A stretch of 48,823 nucleotides of DNA from Promethearchaeota archaeon (lineage in GTDB: Archaea > Asgardarchaeota > Lokiarchaeia > Sigyniarchaeales > SOKP01). Location of the stretch: positions 306 to 49,128 of the forward strand of contig JABXKD010000018.1 of NCBI GenBank assembly GCA_013375475.1, in the 5' to 3' direction. A program made the position numbers and the translations under genes. Shown piece by piece: positions 5,680-20,319 of the stretch (the stretch's first letter is position 1; every line of letters starts with the position of its first letter). Under the pieces are notes generated by a model, which saw nothing but the letters and a program-made list of their open reading frames with translations, did no database searches and had not been told where the DNA came from.

Positions 5680-7590
5680 ATGAGTTTTGAAGGAGAATTA
5701 CAAAGAATTAAAGAAGAAATTATCAAATATCTCCCACCTGAGATAGAGGTAAAAAAAATTGAGTTTGAGGGTCCAGAAATAGCAGTTTATTCTGAAAATA
5801 CTAATCTAGAATCAATAGAAAGTTCAGAAGTGTTAAAGGAACTCGCAAAATCTATGAGGAAAAGGGTAGTTTTTCGGTGGAATGTAGAAAAAAGGAAAGA
5901 TCCATCTGAGACAGAAGATTATATTAGAAATTTAATTAGTGAAGATGCGGAAATTTCAGAGATTGAGTTCGATCATACCCGTGGCGAGGTAATTATAGAA
6001 TCGGGCAAGCCTGGATTAGTAATTGGCAAGAAAGGAGTGAATTTAAAAGAGATTAGGATGAATACTTTTTGGCAGCCAAAGACCATTAGAACCCCTCCAT
6101 TAGCTTCAAGAACTATTAGTTTAATTAGACAAATGTTGACCAAAGAACGACAGAATCAAAAAGATATTCTTCTTAATATTGGAAAGAGAATTCACAGACC
6201 TGCTCTTTTTAACGATTTAGACATTCGTTTAACTTCATTAGGAGGTTTTAGGGAGGTTGGCAGGTCATGTATTTTAATGCAAACAAAAGACAGTAATGTT
6301 CTGTTAGATTGTGGTTTGAATATTGGAAACAAGAATGATCAGTTTCCATACTTTGATGTTCCAGAATTCTCAATAAGAGATTTGGACGCCGTTATTATAT
6401 CTCACGCTCACTTGGATCATTGTGGTATGGTTCCGTATTTATTTAAGTATGGATATAGAGGGCCAGTATATTGCACCCTTCCCACTCGCAATCTTTCAAC
6501 CATGTTACAGTTGGATTTTGTCCAGATATGTGAAAAAGAGGGTGTTCCAATGCCCTATTCAAAAATGGATGTAAAAAATACGGTACTTCATACGATACCT
6601 CTTTCGTGGGGGAAAGTTACGGATATCGCTCCAGATATTAAATTGACTCTTCACAATTCCGGACACATACTAGGCTCTTCACTTGTTCATCTACATTTTG
6701 GGAAAGGTGGATTTAACTTTATTTACACGGGCGATATGAAGTACCAAAAGACTCGATTGCTCGAAAAAGCTGCTGTGAAATTCCCTAGGGTTGAAGCTCT
6801 GCTTGTAGAATCTACTTATGGCGGACCGCAAGATAGAATTCCCAGTAGGCAAGATTCCGAGAGAGAACTTAGACAAATTTTAACCTCAACGATTAGGCGT
6901 GGCGGTAAAGTTCTTATCCCTGTGTTAGCAGTAGGTAGGGCACAGGAGCTCATAATTGTCTTGGAGGAACTCATTTCTAAGGGTATCATTGATCAAGTTC
7001 CTATTTTTCTAGATGGTTTGATCTCAGAAGCGACTGCGATCCACACCGCAAATCCTGATTTTCTTAGCTCTGATTTAAGAGAAAAGATATTACACCAAGG
7101 AAAAAATCCTTTTTTGAGTGAATTCTTTACTACAGTCTCAGGTCACGATGAAAGAAACGATGTTATTATGGGTGGACCTTGTATAATTTTGGCGACGAGC
7201 GGTATGTTAATTGGTGGCCCATCAGTGCAGTACTTAAAAGCTTTAGCAGAAGACAAAAACAACTCTCTAATTTTCGTGTCTTATCAAGTGAACGGCACTT
7301 TGGGTTCAAGAATACAACGTGGATTCCGTGAAATTCAATACACGAACCCTAAAGGGAGAACTCAACTCGTAAGATTAAACTTAAATGTGTTTACGCTAGA
7401 AGGATTTAGCGGTCACTCCTCAAGAAGTCAAATATCTCAATTCTTACGCAGAATTCAACCCAAACCAAAGTTGATTATAACAAACCATGGAGAAGAAAGT
7501 AAATGCGTTAGTTTATCAACAATGATTCATAAAAAATTAAGAAAAGCAACCAAGAGTCCTAAAAACAGAGAGACTATACTCTTAAAATAG
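5680..7590 (+). CDS. KH-domain beta-CASP ribonuclease aCPSF1 (FttA transcription termination factor)
   Basis: N-terminal KH domains (KPGLVIGKKG), GGFREVGRS, SHAHLDH, GHILGS, ESTYGG, FSGHS and NHGE motifs; 636 aa. Confidence 0.95.
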   Translation: MSFEGELQRIKEEIIKYLPPEIEVKKIEFEGPEIAVYSENTNLESIESSEVLKELAKSMRKRVVFRWNVEKRKDPSETEDYIRNLISEDAEISEIEFDHTRGEVIIESGKPGLVIGKKGVNLKEIRMNTFWQPKTIRTPPLASRTISLIRQMLTKERQNQKDILLNIGKRIHRPALFNDLDIRLTSLGGFREVGRSCILMQTKDSNVLLDCGLNIGNKNDQFPYFDVPEFSIRDLDAVIISHAHLDHCGMVPYLFKYGYRGPVYCTLPTRNLSTMLQLDFVQICEKEGVPMPYSKMDVKNTVLHTIPLSWGKVTDIAPDIKLTLHNSGHILGSSLVHLHFGKGGFNFIYTGDMKYQKTRLLEKAAVKFPRVEALLVESTYGGPQDRIPSRQDSERELRQILTSTIRRGGKVLIPVLAVGRAQELIIVLEELISKGIIDQVPIFLDGLISEATAIHTANPDFLSSDLREKILHQGKNPFLSEFFTTVSGHDERNDVIMGGPCIILATSGMLIGGPSVQYLKALAEDKNNSLIFVSYQVNGTLGSRIQRGFREIQYTNPKGRTQLVRLNLNVFTLEGFSGHSSRSQISQFLRRIQPKPKLIITNHGEESKCVSLSTMIHKKLRKATKSPKNRETILLK

Positions 7591-7726
7591 AATTTTTTTA
7601 TTCTATTATCTCCTGTATTCATTCTAAGAACTTTTCATTAATTTCGTTGATACACCTCTTTTTTAAAATTTAGGATAAATTTTAAGTATAGATTAAAGAT
7701 AATTTTATTTCAATAGAGATGATTTT

Positions 7727-8161
7727 ATGCCAATAATTGAACTAAAAAAAGAGATACCGTCACCAGTGGAAACAATTTATGAGGTTTTGAACAATTATCT
7801 AGCTTTACCCAGATGGAATATTATAGTGACTGAATGCACTCAACTTGAATCTAAAAAATATTTCTTAAAAACGAATGTCGGTGATATAACAAATATAGAA
7901 ATTGAGAATATTCCCAATGAAAAGATGACATCCATTCAAGAAGGAAGTCCTATGCAAAAAATAGGGTACATATTCGAACCTAAAGGTGATACAACCTTAG
8001 TTACTCTCTGGACTGAATTTGAGTTAGATGACCAAAAAGAAATCATGGAGATGGCTGGAGACTTATTTTTAAAAAGTTTAACGGTATATATTGACTATCT
8101 TAAGGCTGGTGGAAATCCAGAAGAATACAAAAAATCATTTAGTAAAATCAAAAAAGCATAA
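7727..8161 (+). CDS. SRPBCC/START-like family protein
   Basis: PVETIYEVL..Y..LPRWN N-terminal pattern, beta-rich core and C-terminal helix. Confidence 0.65.
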   Translation: MPIIELKKEIPSPVETIYEVLNNYLALPRWNIIVTECTQLESKKYFLKTNVGDITNIEIENIPNEKMTSIQEGSPMQKIGYIFEPKGDTTLVTLWTEFELDDQKEIMEMAGDLFLKSLTVYIDYLKAGGNPEEYKKSFSKIKKA

Positions 8162-8263
8162 CCATAATATCTTCACATTTTTTTTATTTCACCTTTATTG
8201 GTTTCCGTTTGAGAAGATCAATTTTTTTAACCAGCAATTATTTATTAATTTAAAATTTAACGT

Positions 8264-9214
8264 GTGATATCTTTGAGATTTAAAAGATTAAAGATAAGAA
8301 AAAATTCTATCAAAATTAGCCGTAGGATAATTCAGATATTTGCGTTTTTACTAATAAATTACATTATTCTTGAAACAATTTTACCTATTAATCTTATAAG
8401 TTTAGAAGGAATTGTTAAAGTTTTACCCATTTTAAACTCGCCAAGAAATCCTCTTTCTAATGGAGCAGGAATTCTAGAGTATATTTTCTTTTCCATGGGA
8501 CTAGGTATCTTTCCATTTCTTCTTTTAGCTATATTAATTTTAGTTCTATTATTTACAAATCGAGTATTTTGTGGTTGGATATGTCCGATTGGTTCAATTC
8601 AGGATTTATGTGCTGCAGTACCCACAAAAAAAAGAAAATTTAGTATATCAACTCACAAAAGACTTCTCAATATTAAATATATTTTTATAATTATTACGAT
8701 AATTATTATCTTTCCCTTAGGTATTACTAAAAATGCAAATTTCCCATTTTACATCGATTTTAAAAACCAATTAGGCATATTCGCTGACCAACCAATAGGA
8801 TTTTTCTCTTTATCGGAATTTATTTTTGTATATTTCCCCCAATTATTTCAAAATGTTTTCTTACCCGTACAACTTGGCGCTTTAGAATTCGGAGGCTGGA
8901 TCATCTTGATTTCTTATTCTTTAATTATTGTTCTATCGTTTTGGTATCCACGTATTTATTGTAGATATATTTGTCCATTCGCCGCAGTTTCCTCAGCAGT
9001 TACGGAATACTCATTTTTAAAATTAGCTAGGAACCCTGTAAAATGTGTAGGTAGGTCTGAATGTGGTATTTGTGAAGAAGTGTGTCCAAAACAAATAAGA
9101 ATACTGGACGAACCCTTTGAGTTCTTCACAGGGAAGGGGGAATGTAATCTGTGTCTAGAATGCAAGGAGAAATGTCCTCACGACGCGGTTTTAATTAAGT
9201 TTGGAAATGTATAA
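8264..9214 (+). CDS. Membrane polyferredoxin, NapH/MauN-like 4Fe-4S binding protein
   Basis: TM helices, RVFCGWICPIG and RIYCRYICPF motifs, two C-terminal ferredoxin Cys clusters. True start may be the TTG at 8273. Confidence 0.85.
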   Translation: MISLRFKRLKIRKNSIKISRRIIQIFAFLLINYIILETILPINLISLEGIVKVLPILNSPRNPLSNGAGILEYIFFSMGLGIFPFLLLAILILVLLFTNRVFCGWICPIGSIQDLCAAVPTKKRKFSISTHKRLLNIKYIFIIITIIIIFPLGITKNANFPFYIDFKNQLGIFADQPIGFFSLSEFIFVYFPQLFQNVFLPVQLGALEFGGWIILISYSLIIVLSFWYPRIYCRYICPFAAVSSAVTEYSFLKLARNPVKCVGRSECGICEEVCPKQIRILDEPFEFFTGKGECNLCLECKEKCPHDAVLIKFGNV

Positions 9215-9256
9215 TGTATTCATTATTTTTCTATTCAAATACAAGTGATATAGTGC

Positions 9257-10462
9257 GTGGATTCTAAAAATCTTAAAATATATACATTACACATGAGAAG
9301 AGATTCTGATATAGGAGATAAAGCTATATCCGATTCTCAAGCAATAAGGTATTACGAAGAAGATGAAGAATCTAATATTGATATTCGACCCGCTTTTTTT
9401 AGAGATGTAGATCGCATCGTCCATAGTAAAGCATATGCGCGCTATATAGATAAAACCCAAGTTTTTTTTGGGATTAACAATGCGAACATTACTCATCGTT
9501 CTTTACATGTTGTTTTAGTATCCCGGATTGCCCGCCAAATAGGTCGAATTTTAAAATTTAACACTGACTTAATTGAAGCAATAGCTTTGAGTCACGATGT
9601 AGGACATTCCCCATTTGGACATTTAGGTGAAGCGATATTAAATGAAATAAGTTTAAAAAACAATATGGGTGTTTTTAACCACAACGCTCAAGGCGTAAGG
9701 TGGTTATCTTATCTTGAAAAAAGATTTCCTGATAAACCGGCAAAAGGTTTAAACCTAACCCTCCAAGTGTTAGACGGGGTCCTTTGTCACGATGGGGAAG
9801 TTAACGAAAAAGACCTAAAACCTGTATCAATAAATGGAAAAAGTTGGGAAGATCACTTTGCAGAATACAAAGAAAGTTTTAAGGCAAATAATATTAAAAG
9901 AATCCCCATGTCATTTGAAGCAATAGCTGTGAGATTTGCAGATTCTATTGCTTATATTGGGAGAGATATTGAAGACGCAATACTATTGAAGTTAATTAAA
10001 AGATCAGATATCCCAAAAAGTTGCAGAGAAGTACTTGGTGATACTAATCGAAAAATCATGAAAACCCTAATTATGGATTTGTTGAATACTAGTTTACATA
10101 ACGATGAAATAGGGTACAGCGAACCGATATTTAATGCTTTTAAAGAATTAAAAAAATTTAACTATGACCGTATATACAGCCGCCGTGATATGTACAAAAC
10201 CGAAGATTCAAAGACTTCTTTCCTAGAGAATTTAACTCAAGAGTTTGAACTAATCTTCCAGAGATCTTTAGAAAATTTAGAAAAAGAAAACTTGAATGCT
10301 CCTATTTTTAGAGATCATATTGAATACATAGATGATGAGAAATATTCTACTTATTATAAACCAAATAAAGAACAGGATAATCTGGCATTAATAGTTCGTG
10401 ATTATATTGCTGGAATGAGCGATAAATATTTTCATGAAGTTTTCACAATGTTAAATTCTTAA
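9257..10462 (+). CDS. HD-domain dGTP triphosphohydrolase-like protein
   Basis: FFRDVDRIVHSKAY, KTQVF, HRSLH, HDVGHSPFGHLGE, ADSIAY..DIEDA and DYIAGMSD motifs. Confidence 0.9.
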   Translation: MDSKNLKIYTLHMRRDSDIGDKAISDSQAIRYYEEDEESNIDIRPAFFRDVDRIVHSKAYARYIDKTQVFFGINNANITHRSLHVVLVSRIARQIGRILKFNTDLIEAIALSHDVGHSPFGHLGEAILNEISLKNNMGVFNHNAQGVRWLSYLEKRFPDKPAKGLNLTLQVLDGVLCHDGEVNEKDLKPVSINGKSWEDHFAEYKESFKANNIKRIPMSFEAIAVRFADSIAYIGRDIEDAILLKLIKRSDIPKSCREVLGDTNRKIMKTLIMDLLNTSLHNDEIGYSEPIFNAFKELKKFNYDRIYSRRDMYKTEDSKTSFLENLTQEFELIFQRSLENLEKENLNAPIFRDHIEYIDDEKYSTYYKPNKEQDNLALIVRDYIAGMSDKYFHEVFTMLNS

Positions 10463-10533
10463 AACAGAGAGTATAACTAAGGTTTATACCCTTAGTGAAT
10501 TAAATTACTAAAATACTTACATTTTATTAAAAA

Positions 10534-10680
10534 GGATTACACCGGGAGGATCAATTTTTTTAGTTTACATAACGGGGTTTTGTTTTTTCAGTCACGGGGT
10601 TTTAATACTCTCAGTTAGAAAAGTATTAACAAAAACAAGAATTTTTTAGAATCCTCCTTGCAATAATGCTAGTGTAATCC
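10534..10680 (-). ncRNA. Candidate structured non-coding RNA of unknown class
   Basis: Nested stems GGAUUACACU/GGUGUAAUCC and GGAGGAUU/GAUCCUCC with G-U pairs favouring the minus strand. TATA-like TTTTTATTA at -23 to -31 and TTTTT directly after the 3' end. Confidence 0.6.
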
Positions 10681-10769
10681 AATAAAGTATAAGTTGATAC
10701 TCTAATAAAAATCTATCCTTATTCGAAAATTTTTTTAGAATTTTTTTTGAACTAAAATATTATTTTTAG

Positions 10770-10793
10770 AAAATAGCCCGGCACGGAATTTCG
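10770..10793 (-). repeat. Degenerate direct repeat of the tRNA-Gln 3' end (att-like scar)
   Basis: aaaatagcccggcacggaatttcga versus aaaatagcccagcacggattcga at 10948-10970. Confidence 0.75.
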
Positions 10794-10951
10794 ATGAATG
10801 AAGCAAATTCATTAATATTTAATGAGTTATAACATAGAAAATTTGAGGAAATTCTTAAAGTCTCAATTTATAGGAGATGATCTATACTGGTGATGATTGG
10901 CAATATTAAAGAACTGGATAAGCCTCAAATTGCAAAATAGAAGAGTAAAAA

Positions 10952-11024
10952 TAGCCCAGCACGGATTCGAACCGTGGTCGCGGGGTTCAGGGCCCCACAT
11001 GCTTGACCGCTACACTACTGGGCT
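10952..11024 (-). tRNA. tRNA-Gln (CTG)
   Basis: AGCCCAG/CTGGGCT plus A acceptor (archaeal Gln A1-U72), anticodon arm TGGGG-CCCTGAA-CCCCG, T arm CACGG-TTCGAAT-CCGTG. Confidence 0.95.
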
Positions 11025-11441: not shown

Positions 11442-11798
11442 TTATCCCGTCCTTTTAATAACATGATATCCAAACTTAGATTTAACTGGTTGAGAGATTT
11501 CACCGATTTTTAATTTAGTACAAGCATTCCAGAATTCAGGGACCATATCGCCTTTAGAAAATTCTCCGAGGTTTCCTCCCTTTTTTTTACTCGAACATGT
11601 GGAAAATTGGCGTGCTAAATTTTCAAAATTTTCCCCTGCTTGTAAATCTTCATATAATTCTTGTGCTTTACTAAACTTCTCAACTAACACATGACTCGCT
11701 TTAATTTTTCCAGCTCGAATAGGTGTCCCTCCTGCTTTTGAACTTTTCGAAGAAGTTCCTTTACTTACATACCCCTTACCATATTTATTTTTTCCCAT
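11442..11798 (-). CDS. Parvulin (PpiC-type) peptidyl-prolyl isomerase with basic N-terminal tail
   Basis: KASHVLV, FENLARQFSTCSS, GGNLGEF, MVPEF and PVKSKFGYHVI motifs. ATG at 11798 preferred as start. Confidence 0.93.
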   Translation of the reverse strand: MGKNKYGKGYVSKGTSSKSSKAGGTPIRAGKIKASHVLVEKFSKAQELYEDLQAGENFENLARQFSTCSSKKKGGNLGEFSKGDMVPEFWNACTKLKIGEISQPVKSKFGYHVIKRTG

Positions 11799-11817
11799 TA
11801 TGAACACTCGATTATAT

Positions 11818-12930
11818 TTATTCTATACCTTTATCCTTTCTTCTTAATTCTGCTCTCTTATCCATAATTTTTAAGAATAACTCCTGGGATGTATCAGGAG
11901 GAATCACTTCTTTTTCTTTCTGGTGCAGATTAATTGCTTGTTCAGGACAACTAACGACACAATTACCGCAACCAATGCATAGTAATTTATCTACAATAGC
12001 ATGATTATTGTCTATTTGAATAGCATCCATTAAACATCTTCCAATACATGTCTCGCATCCTATACATAAATCAGCATCAACTTCAGCCAAATAGTTTGAT
12101 GTTATTAGTTCCCATGGACGATCAAGTTTTTTAAGATTAGTTAGTAAATCACAACAAGAACAGCAGCAGCATATATATGATGGTTTTTTAGAATTTCCCG
12201 GTTGAATCACTAATCCTTCTTCTTGAGCTTGTACCAAAATCGAGAATGCTTCATTTTTTGTAATGAGATGGCCGTATCCTCTATTTACAGCATTTACTGC
12301 TGAGTTATCAATTGTAAAACATCGTTCTGACATTGAATTACAAGCTTTATCTAAGAGTTGATAAGCTTTATGACAAATGCATGGAGAAACTGCAATCTTT
12401 TCAGCGTCTTCAAATATTTTCTTCAATTCGTCATATGTGGCAATATTATGTTCAGGAGAAATGCTTTTTTGAACTGGAATCGTTCGAAGTTGATTTATTT
12501 TTGTTCGTGCAAATTCATCTCTGAAGGCTTCCTCCATATATTGTTCAAAATCTTCAAAAAATTCTTTTGTGATTCTTTTTACTTGGTATTCAAACATTCC
12601 TACTGCCAAGGGAAAAAGCTGATAAATATTCTCATCACTACCATCGTCTTTTTTCCGTCTAGCTTTTCTTATCGCTCCCTTTATAAACATTCTTTCTAAT
12701 ATTTTACCTAATTGTTCAAGTGATATTCCTAGTTTCTTCACACGACGGTAAATTTTTTCGATGGGTTCAGGAATATATCTCATGTTCAGTGCAATTTTTA
12801 CTTCTTCAGGAGAAAATAAGAATTTGAGTATTCTTAGTTCAACCCCTGATTCTGTAGCAGGATAACCGATAGGTAGTGTATCAAGATGCTCCTGTAATTT
12901 TCTGTAATTCTCAGATTCTACTTGATTCAA
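11818..12930 (-). CDS. 4Fe-4S dicluster ferredoxin-domain protein with N-terminal HTH-like region
   Basis: YRKLQEHLD..PIGYPATESGVELRIL, CICH, ICCCCSCC and two CxxCxxCxxxC motifs. Start moved to TTG 12930 after a GTGAT SD-like motif. Confidence 0.85.
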   Translation of the reverse strand: MNQVESENYRKLQEHLDTLPIGYPATESGVELRILKFLFSPEEVKIALNMRYIPEPIEKIYRRVKKLGISLEQLGKILERMFIKGAIRKARRKKDDGSDENIYQLFPLAVGMFEYQVKRITKEFFEDFEQYMEEAFRDEFARTKINQLRTIPVQKSISPEHNIATYDELKKIFEDAEKIAVSPCICHKAYQLLDKACNSMSERCFTIDNSAVNAVNRGYGHLITKNEAFSILVQAQEEGLVIQPGNSKKPSYICCCCSCCDLLTNLKKLDRPWELITSNYLAEVDADLCIGCETCIGRCLMDAIQIDNNHAIVDKLLCIGCGNCVVSCPEQAINLHQKEKEVIPPDTSQELFLKIMDKRAELRRKDKGIE

Positions 12931-13058
12931 TTTTCTAATCACTTTTAGTCTCGAATTAATAAGTATACTAATAGGAATTAAATAAGGAGTCAAAATTAAT
13001 TTTATGTTTATGGATTTATAAAAAATTAGAAATATTAAGAAAATGAACAAAGAAATAT

Positions 13059-13475
13059 TTAATTTATAATTAGGTATCGAAAATTCTTTAATTCTTTAAT
13101 TCCATTTATTTCCACTACGATACTTTGAAACTCCTGAATCTCCCCTTCAAATATCATAAAAATTATAAGGTTTTCGCCTTGGAAGTGTTGATTCTTGTTT
13201 ACAACTTGCTCTTTATATCTATTCTCTATTTTATTCAATTTTCTCTGTACGGTTGGATCGTGTGGAGCAACGATTATCAAATTACCAACAATTCTTTTAG
13301 CTATTGTGCCTAAATCTCCATAAGTTTCCAGACTAGAGATTTCAATATCCGACATTAGCCGCAAGAGAGCATCTCTTATCAACTTGGATTTATTTTCATA
13401 TTGATTTCTGGAAACTAATTTATTAATAAATTGCTTTAAACTTTCATTAATAGAAAAACTGATTATAGGACTCAT
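13059..13475 (-). CDS. NikR-like ribbon-helix-helix plus ACT-like regulator
   Basis: IISFSINESL...YENKSKLIRDAL RHH motif and an ACT-like C-terminal domain. Most NikR His/Cys ligands are absent. Confidence 0.75.
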   Translation of the reverse strand: MSPIISFSINESLKQFINKLVSRNQYENKSKLIRDALLRLMSDIEISSLETYGDLGTIAKRIVGNLIIVAPHDPTVQRKLNKIENRYKEQVVNKNQHFQGENLIIFMIFEGEIQEFQSIVVEINGIKELKNFRYLIIN

Positions 13476-13551
13476 CTGAATACTTAACTCTTCTTACTTA
13501 TTACTAATATAAATTCATCACTACACTTATAAATATTTTCAGCAAAGAAAG

Positions 13552-15924
13552 CTATAATTTAATGGCTCGACTAATGACATTATTGAACTTTTCAATATCG
13601 TTAACTAATTTATCAGCGTGCTCATCACTGATTTTATCGTCTTTGCCATACTTATTCAACTCTGTCAACCAATATTCAATTCTTCCTAAGATAGCTTCGT
13701 TATCTCCTAGAATTTTTCTTACTCTTACAAAAGTATCATGTAATTTATTACGAATATTTTGTGCTTTCCATCGTAACATACAATAATCCGAGACTTCAGC
13801 AAGATTCTGAGTTATAGCCATTACATCAATGGTTCTTTCCCTTTCTTCCGATTTAATCTTCCGGATTATATTTATCTGTTCGAACAATAATTCAATGACC
13901 TTTGCTAGGAATCCTGTAAGTTGTCCTGGATTTCCACACCAAACTCTTACTTCTAACGACTGACTCGTCTCGGAGACGTAAACTCTTGTGATTATTCTCC
14001 CGCCTGTTACTTTTGCTTCTGCACAAAACCAAGCTTCCGCTTCGTAGTTTCCTTTGGCGTCAGAACCTTCATGGGAAGTAACAGCGCTAGTATCAAAATT
14101 TTTCAAAGTACGAATTGCTGCTCTGAACGCCAATCGAGGATCTAAATCAGCGATTAAAAATGCGCGTGCATCATTTCCTAGCGTTTGAATTGCAGTTTGA
14201 CAGTCCTCTATAGTGCTCATCGAGGTGCAAACCAAGGGGCATTTAATTTGGATTTCTTTTTTCCTTATGTGAAGCGTGTGTTTAGTGCCTTGGGCATCCT
14301 TGTAGATAACATCGCCTCCAACATTGGAGATTCCGCATTGTTTTGGCTCAAGGTAAAAATCTACACCTCTACTATTGTTAGCCTCAATTACGGGAATATT
14401 AATTAACGGTTGTTTGAGTTTATAGCTTGAAGGAGCGTCTAGAATTACTTTAACATTATTTATTGCCATAGTGCTTAAGTTACGAACGGCAATTTTCATG
14501 TGTACTTGCCCGCCTTCAAAATCATAGTCCCTCACAACTTCAATTTTACCTTCTTCAACAGTTTCAGCCTTTTTCTGTTTTGCCCGAGGTGATTCTGTTG
14601 TGGTGCGAGGAACGCTATATGCGGTAAACATTCTTTTTCCTAAATCGATATACCCATCAATATCTCCATTTCCAATTAATTGGGCAAGATGTTCCTCTAT
14701 GCTTGACTCGGTCACACCCAATCGATTTGATAACTCTCTTAAAGGCATTGTTCTATAAGCCCTAGCAATCTCTTTTATTTTTGTTTCCAGATATTTGCGG
14801 GTCATAAATTCCCTACGCTGAGTAAAGAGTCCTTTTACTTTTCCAGATTTAATAAGTTCGTGAAGGCTTTTTCTCGCTAATTCTACTGCGATTTTGAGTT
14901 TTTTGGCTAGGTTAGATAATTCAAATAATCCTACTTCTTTAGAATATTGCTTTATTTCTTTGTAAATTTTGTCTGAAGTGATAATTTCGTTTCCACGATC
15001 TGCAAAAAATCCGTTAATGGTATTTAATCTCATTAAATTAACGCAAAAAGATTTTGCTAACTCTGTGGGGATATCAAAAACTTCGGAAAGTTTAACTAGT
15101 GAAATTCTTCCCTTTTTATTGATTTCTTCCACTAAACGATCCATTATATATTTTTGAGAATAATAAAACTGTTTTGTTTGTGAAAACGAGCCTTTAATTT
15201 GGAATTGACTAAGTAATTTGTAGATAACTTTGATCGCAGCTTCAGAACTCATATCAAGCATTACCGCCAGATCTGGTACTTTTATAATTCCTTCATTTTG
15301 AATCTTTGAAAGAATTTTCTCCCGGATTTCATAGGAGATATAGAAAAATATCTGGTTTTTCTGATCAACTATGCCGTATATTCGATCTTCGTCAATATAT
15401 TGATTTATTAATTTTACCATCTGTTGAGCATTTATTTTAAATGATTCTATAATTGTTGAGAAATTTGTAATTGGGGCTCTTTTCAGAAATTCTAAAAAAC
15501 AATTTGGGCAAATATCCTTTCCAATTATCCTTTTCAACGTTCTACGACATAAATTGAGCCTATAACCTTGAATCAAGTTATATTTTGTCGCTTCTCTAGC
15601 TAATTGCTCTTTAGTAGGAAAAAACAATCCCGGAGATTTTGAGTAAGAGTTCCAACTACATGTTTCATCAATGCACTCTAAATAGTATTGGCCAGAGGAC
15701 AATCTCTCTAGTCTTAAAAGGGATTTACACTCTGGGCATTTGCTATTCTCGATAACTGTGCACTTATAAAATTTTTCAGCAGCACTTGCTTTTGAATAGT
15801 GTAACTCATGCTTCTTACAAAGCCAACTTTCTGTAGTTGCCATATGGTGGATGCAAAAACTCGAATTGCATTTCTCACACGTAAATGAGATGTTTTTGTT
15901 TTCGCAGAATTTGCAATCAACCAT
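13552..15924 (-). CDS. Multidomain protein: Zn fingers, tandem winged-helix (PCI-like) repeats, Ig-like plus platform domain, helical tail
   Basis: Cys/His clusters in the first ~150 aa, about five L..L...L....G.I.G repeats, then a beta-sandwich and an alpha/beta domain. ATG at 15924 follows GGAG. Confidence 0.85.
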   Translation of the reverse strand: MVDCKFCENKNISFTCEKCNSSFCIHHMATTESWLCKKHELHYSKASAAEKFYKCTVIENSKCPECKSLLRLERLSSGQYYLECIDETCSWNSYSKSPGLFFPTKEQLAREATKYNLIQGYRLNLCRRTLKRIIGKDICPNCFLEFLKRAPITNFSTIIESFKINAQQMVKLINQYIDEDRIYGIVDQKNQIFFYISYEIREKILSKIQNEGIIKVPDLAVMLDMSSEAAIKVIYKLLSQFQIKGSFSQTKQFYYSQKYIMDRLVEEINKKGRISLVKLSEVFDIPTELAKSFCVNLMRLNTINGFFADRGNEIITSDKIYKEIKQYSKEVGLFELSNLAKKLKIAVELARKSLHELIKSGKVKGLFTQRREFMTRKYLETKIKEIARAYRTMPLRELSNRLGVTESSIEEHLAQLIGNGDIDGYIDLGKRMFTAYSVPRTTTESPRAKQKKAETVEEGKIEVVRDYDFEGGQVHMKIAVRNLSTMAINNVKVILDAPSSYKLKQPLINIPVIEANNSRGVDFYLEPKQCGISNVGGDVIYKDAQGTKHTLHIRKKEIQIKCPLVCTSMSTIEDCQTAIQTLGNDARAFLIADLDPRLAFRAAIRTLKNFDTSAVTSHEGSDAKGNYEAEAWFCAEAKVTGGRIITRVYVSETSQSLEVRVWCGNPGQLTGFLAKVIELLFEQINIIRKIKSEERERTIDVMAITQNLAEVSDYCMLRWKAQNIRNKLHDTFVRVRKILGDNEAILGRIEYWLTELNKYGKDDKISDEHADKLVNDIEKFNNVISRAIKL

Positions 15925-16090
15925 TATTCGCTTTTCTCCATTTATCAAATACGAAATAATTAGTATACAATATATATGAAAATACTGATATAAATTATTT
16001 TATGAGACCAATAATGATTCTTTTGAATTATTAATGGGTTTTTAATTTTGTGTTTAAAATCCAAAAAACTATTAATTGCTTTCATAGTAA

Positions 16091-16801
16091 CTATAAACCT
16101 TCTACTGGAAACACAGAAATCCGCAAAAAGGAGAGCAACATAACCACTGTATTGAAGATGATGATGATCAATATCATAATATAGAAAATAGTTTTTTTTC
16201 TGTCTTTTTTTGTCTTCACGATAAGAGAACTACCTTGTTTAGCAAGAGCAAGTGGAAATAATCCCACGAAGGTGCCTAAAGAAAAATAAAATACCACTAA
16301 TAAGCCTTCTATAAATCCATACCCAAGAGAAAACGAAATTGATTGCGAATATATAATTAATTCAAATATACAAGGTGCGAATCCCGCTAAAATTCCAAAA
16401 AAATAAGGAGTTTTCTTTAGTTCCCAATCTAAACTTGCAATATCCTTAAAATATTTGGAATGAGGCATATAATCCCTTCTTGTGATGAAAAAAAGAAGAA
16501 ATATCCCCGCAAACATAGAAGTGAAAGCCCCAAAAAAGTTTACAATGTATGGGTCAGGATCATAAGCGGGAAAGACAAATCGAGGCACTTGTGTAATAAA
16601 TACTGATATAGATGCAATGATCATATTAGCACTAATTAAACCCAATCCATATAATGCCAGTATATATATGCTCTTCTTAGGAGTTTTAGCGATGCCAAAC
16701 GACCAAAAGAAGAAGATGGCTTTGTCTTCGCAAGGGATGGCTGTGTGGAGGATTCCTAATAAAAATGCTGGCATTAAAATGAAGAAATATTCTTGAACCA
16801 T
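16091..16801 (-). CDS. Membrane protein of DsbD/UreH/NicO-like (LysE superfamily) type
   Basis: About six TM helices with LGILHTAIPCEDK and GFAPCIFE motifs. ATG at 16801 preferred as start. Confidence 0.6.
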   Translation of the reverse strand: MVQEYFFILMPAFLLGILHTAIPCEDKAIFFFWSFGIAKTPKKSIYILALYGLGLISANMIIASISVFITQVPRFVFPAYDPDPYIVNFFGAFTSMFAGIFLLFFITRRDYMPHSKYFKDIASLDWELKKTPYFFGILAGFAPCIFELIIYSQSISFSLGYGFIEGLLVVFYFSLGTFVGLFPLALAKQGSSLIVKTKKDRKKTIFYIMILIIIIFNTVVMLLSFLRISVFPVEGL

Positions 16802-16964
16802 TTTTATTTCAAAGTGTCTTTTGGTTTCGTTTATTATTTTTAATATTCTATATTTCATGTAAAATGTAGGATCGAAATTATTTAACTTTAATCATTACTT
16901 GCTAAACTGAGAATTATAGTAGGCTAGAACTTATTTAAATTGTGAATGATAAATTTATTTCTTG

Positions 16965-18257
16965 TTAATTTACTCCATTATTTTGCTTTTTTAAACAGTA
17001 CCTACTAACTCCTATAAAAATTAGAATTAAAAAGAGGGTTGATGCAAAATTAAAAGGAAAATATGGCAAGGTTAACCAAATTACACCTGTGAAAACAAGA
17101 CTAAAGAAGTTTAAAAAGAAAAAACTAGGTTTTATGTATTTTCTGGTTATTTCTGAACTTCTCGGTAAAGTAAACATAGTTAAAATCAATAATGGCGTTA
17201 TTTGGAGTATATGATGATCCCATGTATCAAAATAAGCGAGAAACATAATCAAGATTCCAAAAAGATATCCAATTATCAAAGTGTTTACATGAGATCTTCT
17301 GAATATGTAGAAAATAAAACCCAAGACTCCAGTAATAAGAAGCACTCCAAGGAAAATAGGTAATACGCTTATCTCTTCTGAAGGAACTCCAAAGTATAAG
17401 AACATATTTGAAATTATTTTCGTAATACTAAATGAATGGTTTAAAAGCACAGTCTCAGAACCAGTAAAATTAGTGTTTAAAAATCCATCTAACAAATTAG
17501 GATACACTAAAAACATAATTAGATTTAATGATAATGGGAGCGCAACCCCTACTATTCTTATAACGCTTTTGGTAAATTTGAAAGTAATTTTCTTCTTTTC
17601 AAAATTATAACCAATTATTATTATAAAGGGAATCATGAATAGAGTCGTAGGTTTAATTATAATGCTTATCCCTAAGATCACACTTGCTATGAATTGTCTT
17701 TTATTATCCGAGTATTTAATAAAAATAAACAAAGATAATAGAATGAGTAACGTAACATACAAATTGATTTGTCCAAGAATATAGTTAAATAATTGGGGTA
17801 AACCGATTATGTAAAGGCAAATATATAGGATTACCCTTCTATCTTCCCTCTCATGATCAGTTCCTCTAACCAATATAACGATTTTGTAAAGGATCATCGA
17901 GATTATTATATTTAGAATCAAATTAATTAGGTTAAATATGATAAATCCTAACTCAAATCCCATCAAATAGTAAGGTACGAACATAATTGCTGATAATGGA
18001 AAATATCTAAAAGGCCAAATGTCAATGTAATTTAATGGGTTATAAAGATTGTTTGGATCGTTTACAAAAATCTCTCCTACTCTGTAATATACATAAAAAT
18101 CGCTCTGGGATCTAAATACAAATAAAGTGATAAGAGTTGAAAAGATAAAGAAAAAAATTTGAAGTAAGACACTATATCTAAAAATCTTAAGTTTCCAAAG
18201 TTCTGCTAAACGCGGTTTAAATCTACTTATGATTCTTTTTAATTCGAGCTTAGTCAT
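16965..18257 (-). CDS. GT87/DUF2029-like GT-C membrane glycosyltransferase
   Basis: DFYVYY..G, PFRYFPLSA, LGQIN, IIKPT and WDHH motifs; polytopic. Confidence 0.85.
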   Translation of the reverse strand: MTKLELKRIISRFKPRLAELWKLKIFRYSVLLQIFFFIFSTLITLFVFRSQSDFYVYYRVGEIFVNDPNNLYNPLNYIDIWPFRYFPLSAIMFVPYYLMGFELGFIIFNLINLILNIIISMILYKIVILVRGTDHEREDRRVILYICLYIIGLPQLFNYILGQINLYVTLLILLSLFIFIKYSDNKRQFIASVILGISIIIKPTTLFMIPFIIIIGYNFEKKKITFKFTKSVIRIVGVALPLSLNLIMFLVYPNLLDGFLNTNFTGSETVLLNHSFSITKIISNMFLYFGVPSEEISVLPIFLGVLLITGVLGFIFYIFRRSHVNTLIIGYLFGILIMFLAYFDTWDHHILQITPLLILTMFTLPRSSEITRKYIKPSFFFLNFFSLVFTGVIWLTLPYFPFNFASTLFLILIFIGVSRYCLKKQNNGVN

Positions 18258-19045
18258 TTTGATCTATTTATAGATTCATTATTTCTTTGTTTTTTGACAT
18301 ATAAAATTATTGCGATAAAAAATGCTCCTATTAAACCTAGGGTTGCGGGTAATACATAAATGGGTAAAGATTCCAACTCAATATCGATTACGACTACATT
18401 TCCGCTTGTATATAATTTAAAGGTGCTTAAAATCCCATCGATGTTGTAGAATGCAATTATTAATATTCTTTCTGAAGGATAATCTGGCTGTAGAAAGTCC
18501 TTATCAATTTCTACATTAAGAGTTGGTAAAACGCGATTATCGATATCATACATACTGCTTAATTTTAGAGAGCCTATGTATTCACTAATTGGAACCGGGA
18601 ACCAGAATGGTACAAACGGAATAACATTCAACAAAGTATACTCAGTAGGGTATTGACTTGTGTCATCTAAATGGGTGAATTCTACATTATAATCGTAAGG
18701 ACCCCAATTTTCTTCATTACTCCACATCCAAATGTCAACATTTGCATATAATATTGTTGAATTTATAGATGAATTTTGTCGCCAACCATTTCCATTAATT
18801 TGCCATTTCATTCTTTTCCCTTGACTCAAGTTTTCAAATAAACCTACTCTACTCCAGTTTTCTCCAAATAAATCATTCATTTTATTATTATCACATACAT
18901 GGCAATTCCAAATTAATTCATCATTTATTTCAAAACCAAATTCATAATAATAAATCTTAGACGCAATTACATCTGAAGTAGAACTAATTAATGAAGTTGA
19001 GATAATAAAGATGATAGCGTAAAGATTTTTATCTCTAGTATTCAT
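18254..19045 (-). CDS. Secreted, C-terminally anchored surface protein
   Basis: N-terminal signal-like stretch, beta-rich Trp/Asn domain with N-x-S/T sequons, C-terminal TM helix followed by KKQR. Confidence 0.75.
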   Translation of the reverse strand: MNTRDKNLYAIIFIISTSLISSTSDVIASKIYYYEFGFEINDELIWNCHVCDNNKMNDLFGENWSRVGLFENLSQGKRMKWQINGNGWRQNSSINSTILYANVDIWMWSNEENWGPYDYNVEFTHLDDTSQYPTEYTLLNVIPFVPFWFPVPISEYIGSLKLSSMYDIDNRVLPTLNVEIDKDFLQPDYPSERILIIAFYNIDGILSTFKLYTSGNVVVIDIELESLPIYVLPATLGLIGAFFIAIILYVKKQRNNESINRSK

Positions 19046-20319
19046 GAATCTCCCTCTTTAACATGTTCCATTTTTTTAACAATCAGGTATTTAGAAATAC
19101 CATAAAAAGTTAAAAATAGAAAAAAAGTTCCTACAAAATTAAATGGAAATATTGGATATGTAAAAAGCCAGATCCCAACAAATATAAGATCAAAGAAATT
19201 GAAAAAGAATAAACTAGGTTTAATATAATGTAATAAGTTGGAATGCCTTGGAAGATTGAAAATAATAATCATCATTAAAGGAATAAGATTTAAGAGGTGA
19301 TGATTCCAAGAATCGTAATAAGTGAGTAGCATTATTAACATTCCTATAGAATAGCCATATAAGATAGAATTTTTGGTTCTCCTCCTTAAAATAAAGATAA
19401 AAAATCCTAATCCTCCAATGATACCAGCGGAGGCGATTAATACAGTCAATTGACTAAATGGAATGTTAAACAAAAAACAAAAATTCGTAATTAGTTTTGT
19501 TAAACTGAAAGAATAATTTAAAGCGATAGGATTGCTTCCAGTAAAATTTGTTGAGAGAAAACCCCCCCATAGTTTAGGGAAGGCAACAAATAACACAAAA
19601 TTTGCCAAAACGGGTAATAATACTCCAATTAATCTTATAATGCTTGTAAAAAAATCAAATTTTAACTTTCTTTTCTCCAAATCAAAATGTATTATTAACA
19701 GAAATGGGATTAATAAGAGGGATGTTGGTTTAATTATAATACTAATCCCTAAAATAACGCTTCCAATAAACTGCCACGAGTTCTTTTTATACATAATGAA
19801 AATTAATAACGATATTAAAATGAAAATCGTGACGAATAGATTTATTTGACCGTAAATATAATTTAGAATGTGTGGTACTCCCATCAAGTAAAAACTAAGA
19901 TATAAAATCAATCTTTTATCGTCTTTTTCGTGATCTTGTCTCCGAATAATTTTTATAATTTTATACATAATCAAGCAGATTAAGATGTTAAGAATAAAAT
20001 TAAGGCAATTAAAGAGAATAAAAGCTAAGCCAAAATTTAAGAAAGAAAACGGAACAAAAAATAACGCAGAGAAAGGAAAATACCTAAAATCCCATATGTA
20101 ATTCGTTTGGTTATACAGATTCTCGATGTCTGTGAGAAAAATCCTCCCTGATTGATAAAATATGGCGAAATCATTTAATTGATAAAAAAATAGGAAAAAT
20201 AAAATAATAGACAAAGTAAAATAGATTATTTGAGCTAAAATTGCAAAGCGGAACACTTTTACGTCCCAAAACTCCTTAAGCTTTCCAATTATTCTCGAGA
20301 ATAAAGATAATAAAGTCAT
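19042..20319 (-). CDS. GT87/DUF2029-like GT-C membrane glycosyltransferase, paralog of 16965-18257
   Basis: DFAIFY..G, DFRYFPFSA, YGQIN, IIKPT and WNHH motifs; collinear with the downstream paralog. Confidence 0.85.
   Translation of the reverse strand: MTLLSLFSRIIGKLKEFWDVKVFRFAILAQIIYFTLSIILFFLFFYQLNDFAIFYQSGRIFLTDIENLYNQTNYIWDFRYFPFSALFFVPFSFLNFGLAFILFNCLNFILNILICLIMYKIIKIIRRQDHEKDDKRLILYLSFYLMGVPHILNYIYGQINLFVTIFILISLLIFIMYKKNSWQFIGSVILGISIIIKPTSLLLIPFLLIIHFDLEKRKLKFDFFTSIIRLIGVLLPVLANFVLFVAFPKLWGGFLSTNFTGSNPIALNYSFSLTKLITNFCFLFNIPFSQLTVLIASAGIIGGLGFFIFILRRRTKNSILYGYSIGMLIMLLTYYDSWNHHLLNLIPLMMIIIFNLPRHSNLLHYIKPSLFFFNFFDLIFVGIWLFTYPIFPFNFVGTFFLFLTFYGISKYLIVKKMEHVKEGDS

Follow-up and report, generated by a model that had tools for sequence, protein, structure and literature searches.

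The question raised by this locus is what a stretch of 147 nucleotides (nt) on contig JABXKD010000018.1 of a Promethearchaeota archaeon encodes. It lies at 10534..10680 of "the window", which denotes the whole piece of DNA analysed and comprises 48,823 nt of this contig. An initial annotation had proposed an unclassified, structured RNA with its own promoter and two copies of a short motif, and the 147-nt minus-strand sequence reads as given there. Our results suggest that we are very probably dealing with a real, conserved RNA gene that founds a new family in Asgard archaea. The window stems from a genome of Asgard type with ~30% GC. By the criteria described below, the element is a predicted small non-coding RNA of ~140-147 nt, specified by an apparently single-copy gene that would be read from 10680→10534 on the minus strand. 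Its transcription, its ends and its helices as RNA structure are inferred from the sequence.

Homologues were searched for over genome contigs with the twin motif as pattern, allowing a gap of 4-34 nt between both copies, and at least 123 loci were obtained. Full-length homologues of 138-143 nt are present at at least eight loci among the matches listed, all of them in Asgard metagenome-assembled genomes (MAGs). The depositors assigned five of these to Promethearchaeota (L011, L019, L029, L076, L106), one to Candidatus Hermodarchaeota (L003) and one to Candidatus Hodarchaeota (L107), and L017 was deposited as 'uncultured archaeon'. All named taxa fall within the kingdom Promethearchaeati. The genome of the window itself is not among the matches listed, and the remaining 115 loci listed are bacterial or unrelated. 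From the nine sequences, i.e., the window element and its eight homologues, a covariance model named R1 was built. It assigns 95.8 bits to the window element, with the next best candidate in the window at 15.9 bits. The eight loci score 99-157 bits in sense and at most 34 bits in antisense, and the other 115 loci listed reach at most 24.6 bits. The high scores of the eight homologues are partly a matter of construction, since R1 was built from them.

The pattern of two 10-mers is also present, among the matches listed, in multi-copy bacterial repeats, with ten loci in a Roseburia MAG (L027, L031-L033, L062, L067, L071, L086, L087, L094) and seven in a Prevotella MAG (L015, L016, L053, L058, L079, L080, L105). 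Arrays with a periodicity of ~66 nt at L025 look like CRISPR or repetitive extragenic palindrome (REP) elements. None of these bacterial repeats scores above 24.6 bits with R1, and they have no relation to the Asgard RNA.

Alignment of the nine sequences with MAFFT yields 174 columns. 64 of them are invariant, and while 20 are imposed by the search pattern, 44 are not. All nine RNAs begin with GGAUUACAC and end with GUGUAAUCC. Further invariant blocks independent of the pattern are GGAGGA, UCCUC(C), a U-run following (A)CUA, and the linker that separates the C-rich words, G(UG)ACUGAAA, which is kept in all nine members and in its longer form reads GUG(UG)ACUGAAA. Conservation is sharply bounded by the promoter on one side and the 3' end of the RNA on the other. 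The mean pairwise identity amounts to 0.67 within the RNA and 0.64 in the region -40..-1, and drops to 0.36 for -140..-41 and 0.35 for the 70 nt downstream; a shuffled control gives 0.25.

As for the promoter, a TATA-like box had been placed at -31 to -23, and the T-rich stretch at these positions belongs to the BRE/TATA-like element (BRE, transcription factor B recognition element) GATAGATTTTTATT at -37..-24. This box is exact in five out of nine family members and carries one to three substitutions in the other four. Its distance from the RNA start is the same in eight members and deviates by 1 nt in L029. Archaeal promoters have their TATA box centred near -26/-27 and the BRE just upstream. 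The position of the box fits this scheme and, together with the T-tract behind the RNA, sets the transcribed strand. The tRNA promoters in the window do not carry the box, and no conserved element was observed on the other, non-promoter side of the RNA gene in the nine loci. At the 3' end, TTTTT follows the last base directly, as had been claimed. T-tracts of three to six occur within ~30 nt downstream of the homologues, which is weak evidence in DNA of 30% GC. Judged from the sequence, the RNA likely stops with the last helix or shortly beyond it. A scan for sigma-70 promoters and intrinsic terminators gave 8 promoter-like sites against 6.4 expected and no terminator, and is uninformative for an archaeon.

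None of the 4227 models of Rfam 15 matches 10534-10680 at gathering score or with E <= 10, and no Rfam match was found on the RNA in the eight homologue loci at E <= 5. This absence of a match, the promoter box at a like distance in the eight homologues and the bounded conservation bear out the proposal of an independently promoted RNA gene that belongs to no known family.

Several other classes were considered and rejected. A coding function is not supported, as short reading frames inside the RNA differ between members. For a C/D box sRNA, Box C (RUGAUGA) would be required, and it was found in none of the nine sequences even with one mismatch; CUGA occurs only internally, at 67-103. An H/ACA sRNA would carry a 3' ACA, which is missing from the nine RNAs, all of which terminate with GUGUAAUCC within the closing helix P1. 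Neither ARAGORN nor the Rfam tRNA model detects a cloverleaf on the element. A replication origin was dismissed as well: the window holds no Orc1/Cdc6-type gene, and the genes converge instead of diverging.

A mobile origin deserves separate treatment. The element has a perfect 9-bp terminal inverted repeat, formed by GGATTACAC and GTGTAATCC, and a length of ~140 bp, as expected of a miniature inverted-repeat transposable element (MITE) or another non-autonomous mobile element. The initial annotation had itself pointed out that dispersed copies with target-site duplications would speak for a MITE. Neither blastn nor the unfiltered covariance model detects a second copy in the 48.8-kb window, and R1 finds one copy per fetched locus. 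Each of the eight Asgard MAGs occurs once among the matches listed; true repeats occur 7-10 times per MAG. Direct repeats flanking the element measure only 0-2 nt in all nine cases, so that no target-site duplication is visible. The conserved promoter lies outside the supposed terminal repeat, and phage and plasmid collections, searched with blastn in distant mode, gave no match. The copies do not sit at unrelated sites either, as a gene for an HD-domain protein adjoins the RNA in 8/9 loci and a gene for a peptidyl-prolyl isomerase (PPIase) lies on its promoter side in 6/9. A single copy per locus where tested, the lack of target-site duplications and the conserved synteny rule in favour of rejection, and a MITE is hardly credible. 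The RNA locus is orthologous and, among the loci covered, single-copy.

Turning to structure, the minus strand of the window element reaches a minimum free energy (MFE) of -36.5 kcal/mol (z = -5.14), and none of 200 shuffles folds as well. For the plus strand, z is -1.60, and 15 of 200 shuffles fold equally well. The sense strands of all nine members have z-scores from -2.7 to -5.2, and sense beats antisense in seven out of nine.

P1, a mini-hairpin (GCA/UGC), P3 and an apical hairpin had been read from the sequence beforehand. All four are reproduced in the MFE structure of the window; only P1 and P3 extend to the whole family, and these two helices (10 and 6 pairs, respectively) are all that RNAalifold retrieves from the alignment of the nine sequences. 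The tenth pair of P1 varies (AU in three members, UA in two, UG in one, unpaired in three), and the last C of the 3' strand of P3 is replaced by U in L029, which leaves a G-U pair, and by A in L106, which causes a mismatch. The homologues possess an unpaired strand of 10-13 nt in place of the mini-hairpin. Neither the mini-hairpin nor the three-way junction is supported as a general feature, as they are absent or different in the homologues.

The interior of the molecule exists in two forms. In type I (window, L011, L107), a hairpin immediately precedes the first C-rich element on its 5' side, and the 3' part is short. In L011 and L107, this hairpin is not the apical hairpin of the window and belongs to an ACCCUAU/AUAGGGU type. 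Type II comprises the six other loci, which have no such hairpin and carry the extra helices AAAAAG/CUUUUU and CAGUUUA/UAAACUG. This distinction also affects the helix P4 of the initial annotation. Its strands UUGUUUUU and AAAAACAA are complementary on paper, yet the helix is absent from the MFE structure of the window. According to the partition function, the U-run of the window pairs with the upstream A-run with a probability of 0.84 and with the stretch between the two motifs with a probability of 0.01. Upstream pairing of the U-run is the rule in type I (0.71-0.84), and pairing with the A-run between the motifs in type II (0.73-0.91). Thus, P4 is favoured in type II and not in the window. 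Given this pairing of the U-run, both the topology of the junction and the placement of the second motif just 3' of a stem depend on the model chosen.

Pair counting was performed on a structure of 23 pairs that combines P1 and P3 with a P5-like helix. In these helices, 95.1% of the cells are paired, compared with 35-50% when the partners are slid by one to three columns, and G-U wobble cells are present in the helices.

The two C-rich elements are predicted to be accessible. The motif AAAACCCCGT occurs at the two positions claimed for it, with starts 22 nt apart (coordinates of both elements in Table 1). These are the only copies in the 48,823 bases of the window, and two copies turned up in one of 100 shuffles. 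In all nine members, the CCCC cores have probabilities of 0.75-0.96 of being unpaired, against a mean of 0.41-0.48 over the whole RNA (partition function). The A-run of the linker is of variable length, so that the start-to-start spacing of the elements ranges from 20 to 23 nt. The second pair of motifs, described earlier on both sides of the central bubble, can be read from the sequence as CUAAAAAAUU (nt 32-41) and CUAAAAAAAUU (nt 118-128); the CUAAAAAA repeats are specific to the window or to its subtype and are absent or different in homologues. Read on the plus strand, on which the HD gene is encoded, the twin motif becomes ACGGGG; the T-runs behind it measure 4-7 in the window and up to 10 in homologues.

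Table 1. Features of the small RNA gene and of its surroundings. Positions refer to the window; RNA nt 1 corresponds to position 10680.
Feature	RNA nt	Position	Strand	Remark
Ferredoxin-type gene		8264-9214	+	profile scan of window open reading frames (ORFs)
HD/HD_assoc gene, converging on the RNA gene		9257-10462	+	profile scan of window ORFs
T5 tract after the last paired base		10529..10533	-	likely transcription stop
Small RNA gene, 147 nt	1-147	10534..10680	-	member of a nine-sequence family
P1, 3' strand GGUGUAAUCC	138-147	10534..10543	-	last 9 nt invariant in 9/9
P3, 3' strand GAUCCUCC	129-136	10545..10552	-	UCCUC invariant
C-rich element 2 AAAACCCCGU	100-109	10572..10581	-	CCCC unpaired with P 0.87 in the window, 0.76-0.96 in homologues
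Linker GACUGAAAAAAC	88-99	10582..10593	-	between the two C-rich elements
C-rich element 1 AAAACCCCGU	78-87	10594..10603	-	CCCC unpaired with P 0.75 in the window, 0.80-0.93 in homologues
Apical hairpin UUAAUACU...AGUAUUAA	52-79	10602..10629	-	MFE; subtype-specific
A-run/U-run hairpin with conserved U5 tract	35-50	10631..10646	-	MFE
P3, 5' strand GGAGGAUU	24-31	10650..10657	-	GGAGGA invariant in 9/9
Mini-hairpin GCA-UUAU-UGC	12-21	10660..10669	-	MFE; window only
P1, 5' strand GGAUUACACU	1-10	10671..10680	-	first 9 nt invariant in 9/9; MFE and RNAalifold
BRE/TATA-like box GATAGATTTTTATT		10704..10717	-	-37..-24; sole exact copy in the window
tRNA-Gln(CTG) gene		10952-11024	-	
Parvulin PPIase gene, followed by a second iron-sulphur protein		11442-11807	-	profile scan

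What could be the function of an RNA built in this way? We tentatively favour a stable scaffold or decoy RNA with two identical docking sites, to which we attach somewhat less than even confidence. Its own promoter of the BRE/TATA type would drive transcription, and the invariant 9-bp helix P1 would lock the 5' and 3' ends together. An asymmetric loop would then lead to the invariant 6-bp helix P3 (GGAGGA/UCCUCC), such that both helices form a handle. This handle would bear an A/U-rich body, remodelled between lineages, that always displays two identical single-stranded copies of AAAACCCCGU at a distance of 20-23 nt. Each C-rich element may dock one copy or one subunit of a sequence-specific protein that binds single-stranded RNA, and the handle would protect the ends and perhaps offer a second recognition site. 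It is the combination of frozen helices, a rebuilt interior and two accessible 10-nt words at elastic distance that would point to recognition by a protein. Constraint of such strength is usual in RNAs held by proteins.

The main rival is a trans-acting sRNA that base-pairs through its twin C-rich seeds with sites of the type ACGGGG(U) in one or several mRNAs or stable RNAs and needs P1 and P3 merely for stability. Two accessible, invariant C-runs and a stand-alone gene with its own promoter are what such a regulator would present, and both bacterial sRNAs with several C-rich seeds and archaeal base-pairing sRNAs are known. Potential target sites, however, are scarce in the 48.8 kb searched. 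Outside the RNA gene, ACGGGG occurs four times in the window, always within coding sequences or antisense to them and never near a start codon. A GGGG run was found in one out of 40 start regions of the window (47604), and Shine-Dalgarno-like words are rare there, such that the use of this signal looks weak. The complement of the twin motif was detected in none of five homologues of the neighbouring HD gene. Furthermore, a model based on seeds only does not call for invariance of both strands of the helices. We regard base pairing as unlikely, albeit as a possibility to be taken seriously. What favours protein docking over it would be the frozen helices, the linker that floats by 3 nt and the scarcity of GGGG and ACGGGG sites.

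A number of observations weigh against the scaffold or decoy reading. The space searched for targets consists of 48.8 kb plus short flanks, which is far too small to speak against a base-pairing role. Since the homology search required both 10-mers, the conservation of the twin motif is a matter of ascertainment, and relatives without it would escape the search. Profile scans of the neighbourhoods did not reveal a gene for an RNA-binding protein that is conserved beside the RNA; among the neighbours in L003, a PIN domain is the one Pfam family found, and none of these neighbours has a counterpart in the window. The subtypes disagree in their interior pairing, and in most members the antisense strand, too, has a fold significantly better than that of shuffles (z from -1.6 to -4.4). 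Finally, covariation hardly contributes. The covariation term of RNAalifold is +0.11, which means no support, and a covariation score as high as the observed one is reached in 44 out of 500 shuffles. Of the 23 pairs, 15 are constant and two change on both sides, namely the tenth pair of P1 and one pair of P5 (CG in six members, UA in one). A lack of covariation had been named at the outset as an outcome that would discredit the RNA, and the data come close to it, as the two shared helices never vary. With helices that are invariant, conservation and thermodynamics speak for RNA structure but do not prove it.

The same invariance opens the way to an explanation at the level of DNA, i.e., inverted repeats bound by a protein, a shared or bidirectional terminator, or a replication-related site. 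As the helices are invariant on both strands and nearly free of covariation, selection may act on the DNA sequence itself. Both strands fold, the locus lies at a point of gene convergence, and units of a G-run and a T-run (ACGGGG, then T-run) are located on the HD-sense strand. Against this stands the promoter-like box, which is found on one side only and at a fixed distance. The spacing between the repeat pairs is asymmetric, with 10-14 nt in one arm and 1-4 nt in the other, and thus fits the internal loop of an RNA, whereas protein sites would be symmetric. Where the window has its apical hairpin, L011 and L107 have another one, and the helices contain the wobble cells mentioned above. L003 keeps the element with no HD gene there to terminate, and conservation of every base is not usual for terminators. 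The absence of an Orc1/Cdc6-type gene from the window disfavours the replication-related variant. Altogether, an element acting as DNA seems very improbable.

The surroundings of the gene offer two further explanations. The RNA gene sits where a series of plus-strand genes (5680-10462) meets minus-strand genes (11442-20319), both sets converging on it. The nearest plus-strand gene encodes an HD protein that belongs to the dGTP triphosphohydrolase subfamily (TIGR01353, 175 bits against a cut-off of 152). This gene converges on the RNA in 8/9 loci, that is, in the window and at seven of the eight homologue loci. It is visible in full length in the window, L011, L017, L019, L029 and L076; L106 and L107, with flanks of 300 nt, reveal its C-terminal end alone. 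In L003, the RNA is present and the HD gene is not. The PPIase gene is found on the promoter side in the window, L003, L011, L017, L029 and L076. The adjoining proteins of the dGTPase family are 65.7-67.6% identical between loci.

One may ask whether the RNA is a cis-linked partner of the HD gene. It would either control the HD mRNA as an antisense RNA overlapping its 3' end, in a layout like that of type I toxin-antitoxin loci, or bind to the enzyme itself as a ligand. The convergent arrangement, the assignment to the dGTPase subfamily and the short spacers between HD gene and RNA (~70-115 nt in five loci) are compatible with such a role, and the adjacency persists in L017 and L019, where the neighbour on the promoter side is a different one. 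The spacer of the window contains no T5 run, the first T7 being located 22 nt inside the RNA gene, so that HD transcripts could enter the latter. Five out of six spacers with a defined HD end, however, carry a T5-T8 run of their own, and a conserved 3' overlap with HD transcripts is thus not supported. A role as cis-antisense RNA does not need the invariant blocks, the HD genes lack complements of the twin motif, and L003 manages without an HD gene altogether. Moreover, ferredoxin, HD, RNA, tRNA-Gln and PPIase genes constitute a syntenic block, and the adjacency may be simple inheritance. We consider a cis-linked role improbable. The more specific idea, in which the RNA would be a dedicated partner of the HD dGTPase-family enzyme whose C-rich elements dock two subunits of the oligomer and gate the hydrolysis of deoxynucleoside triphosphates (dNTPs), is likewise a long shot. 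Within the spacer of the window (10463-10533, from the HD stop to the 3' end of the RNA), there is a 6-bp palindrome, CTAAGG...CCTTAG.

The window, L029 and L076 each have a gene for tRNA-Gln(CTG) less than 300 nt from the RNA; in L019, the distance is 1.4 kb. No tRNA was found in the flanks of L011 and L017. Genes for tRNA-Gly and tRNA-Gln are the only ones for tRNAs that ARAGORN and Rfam, at gathering score, detect in the window. A resemblance of one motif to the tRNA-Gln had been pointed out in the initial annotation, and it suggests that the RNA could be derived from tRNA-Gln(CUG) or mimic it, with C-rich elements that copy the 3' half of the anticodon arm and the variable region. Such an element might be left over from rearrangements at the tRNA gene or might bind an enzyme that handles tRNA-Gln. 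The match of 10/11 positions holds in the window, where 31 of 1000 mononucleotide shuffles score as high, and L029 matches its own tRNA-Gln at 10/10 positions (1 of 1000 shuffles). It does not hold beyond these two of the four loci with a nearby tRNA-Gln, as the similarity is at chance level in L076 (918/1000) and L019 (486/1000). Both the anticodon and the 5' strand of its arm fall outside the match, so that no arm can form. Neither a cloverleaf nor a tRNA-like score was obtained, and two of the loci lack a tRNA in their flanks. A further point in favour is a partial tRNA copy between tRNA and RNA, which is described below. On balance, an origin from tRNA-Gln appears quite improbable.

The tRNA genes display some peculiarities of their own. 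In the window, tRNA-Gln(CTG) is co-oriented with the RNA (10952-11024, minus strand). Its counterparts in L029 (2276-2348, plus strand) and L076 (215-316, minus strand) are on the strand opposite to the RNA and divergent from it, and this suggests a local inversion in the lineage of the window. The tRNA-Gln(CTG) genes of L076 (215-316, minus strand) and L019 (3535-3636, plus strand) measure 102 nt and contain an insertion of ~29 nt just past the anticodon, presumably an intron. Both are detected by Rfam and missed by ARAGORN. At 10770-10795 on the minus strand, 178 nt downstream of the intact tRNA-Gln, a copy of 25 nt extends from a tRNA-Gln-like T-loop to the 3' end, with one base difference in the acceptor strand. 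It resembles the att-type remnant that an integration or a rearrangement would leave.

Some neighbouring genes may be recorded in addition. The minus strand encodes at 13552-15948 a protein of 798 aa with Pfam hits to PCI, E3 UFM1-ligase, DDRGK, S25-like and VPS28-like domains. It is a multidomain protein of eukaryote-signature type, and its 244 C-terminal residues are 79.5% identical in L029. A termination factor of the aCPSF1/FttA type (KH_TffA, beta-CASP, RMMBL) is encoded at 5680-7590 on the plus strand, 3 kb from the RNA gene. Downstream of the RNA in L003 (2295-2919, plus strand), the single locus lacking the HD neighbour, an ORF of 107 aa and a PIN-domain ORF form a VapBC-like pair.

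How does this RNA compare with known systems? The RsaE/RoxS-type sRNAs of Firmicutes are alike in having a stand-alone gene and two identical unpaired C-runs on a folded scaffold. They differ from the Asgard RNA, which has no Rfam match and an archaeal host, embeds its C-runs in an invariant 10-nt word with an invariant linker, finds no G-rich ribosome-binding sites in the window, and closes its ends with an invariant helix instead of a terminator hairpin. Y RNAs, which belong to the Ro60 ribonucleoprotein (RNP) of eukaryotes and some bacteria, are of roughly comparable size and likewise have a terminal stem of frozen sequence, an unpaired interior rich in pyrimidines, a stop at a T-tract and an upstream promoter of the TATA type. 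A conserved terminal stem as in Y-type RNAs is indeed seen in P1, whose 9 bp are invariant in all nine members. However, there is no match to the Rfam Y_RNA model, the sequence of the stem and the twin motif are unrelated, and no TROVE/Ro-like match was obtained among the 42 window ORFs scanned, which leaves Y RNAs as a working analogy only. Protein sponges of the CsrB/RsmZ type likewise display one single-stranded word several times over on a structured RNA. In comparison with them, the Asgard RNA has two sites only, its words are C-rich and not GGA, and it has no Rfam match; we know of no CsrA-like partner in archaea. The C/D and H/ACA guides of archaea are small RNAs with paired termini and CUGA words as well, but are set apart by the points given above, i.e., the missing Box C, the internal position of CUGA and the missing 3' ACA. 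Typical archaeal guide RNAs are also shorter than 140 nt. As no Rfam model matches, the RNA is a member of none of the C-rich-seed sRNAs, Y-type RNAs or sponges. A stand-alone small RNA with single-stranded motifs is a known kind of molecule; the family, its architecture and its lineage are new. The titles and abstract openings retrieved from the literature do not describe an Asgard-specific RNA family or an RNA of this kind.

Among the prokaryotes known, Asgard archaea are the nearest relatives of eukaryotes, and to our knowledge their repertoire of non-coding RNAs is almost unexplored. The RNA described here combines ~44 invariant positions that are not imposed by the search with its own promoter and a fixed address across genomes whose neighbouring proteins are ~66% identical. 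The family could join the RNA family libraries and in this way support the annotation of Asgard genomes. If expressed, the RNA would provide a bait of 140 nt with two mutable 10-nt sites and hence a route to a new Asgard RNP or regulon. Should the RNA act on the HD protein, the archaeal relatives of eukaryotes would possess a SAMHD1-like dNTPase under the control of an RNA. In a wider sense, the RNA would then be a subunit of an Asgard RNP that is new to science.

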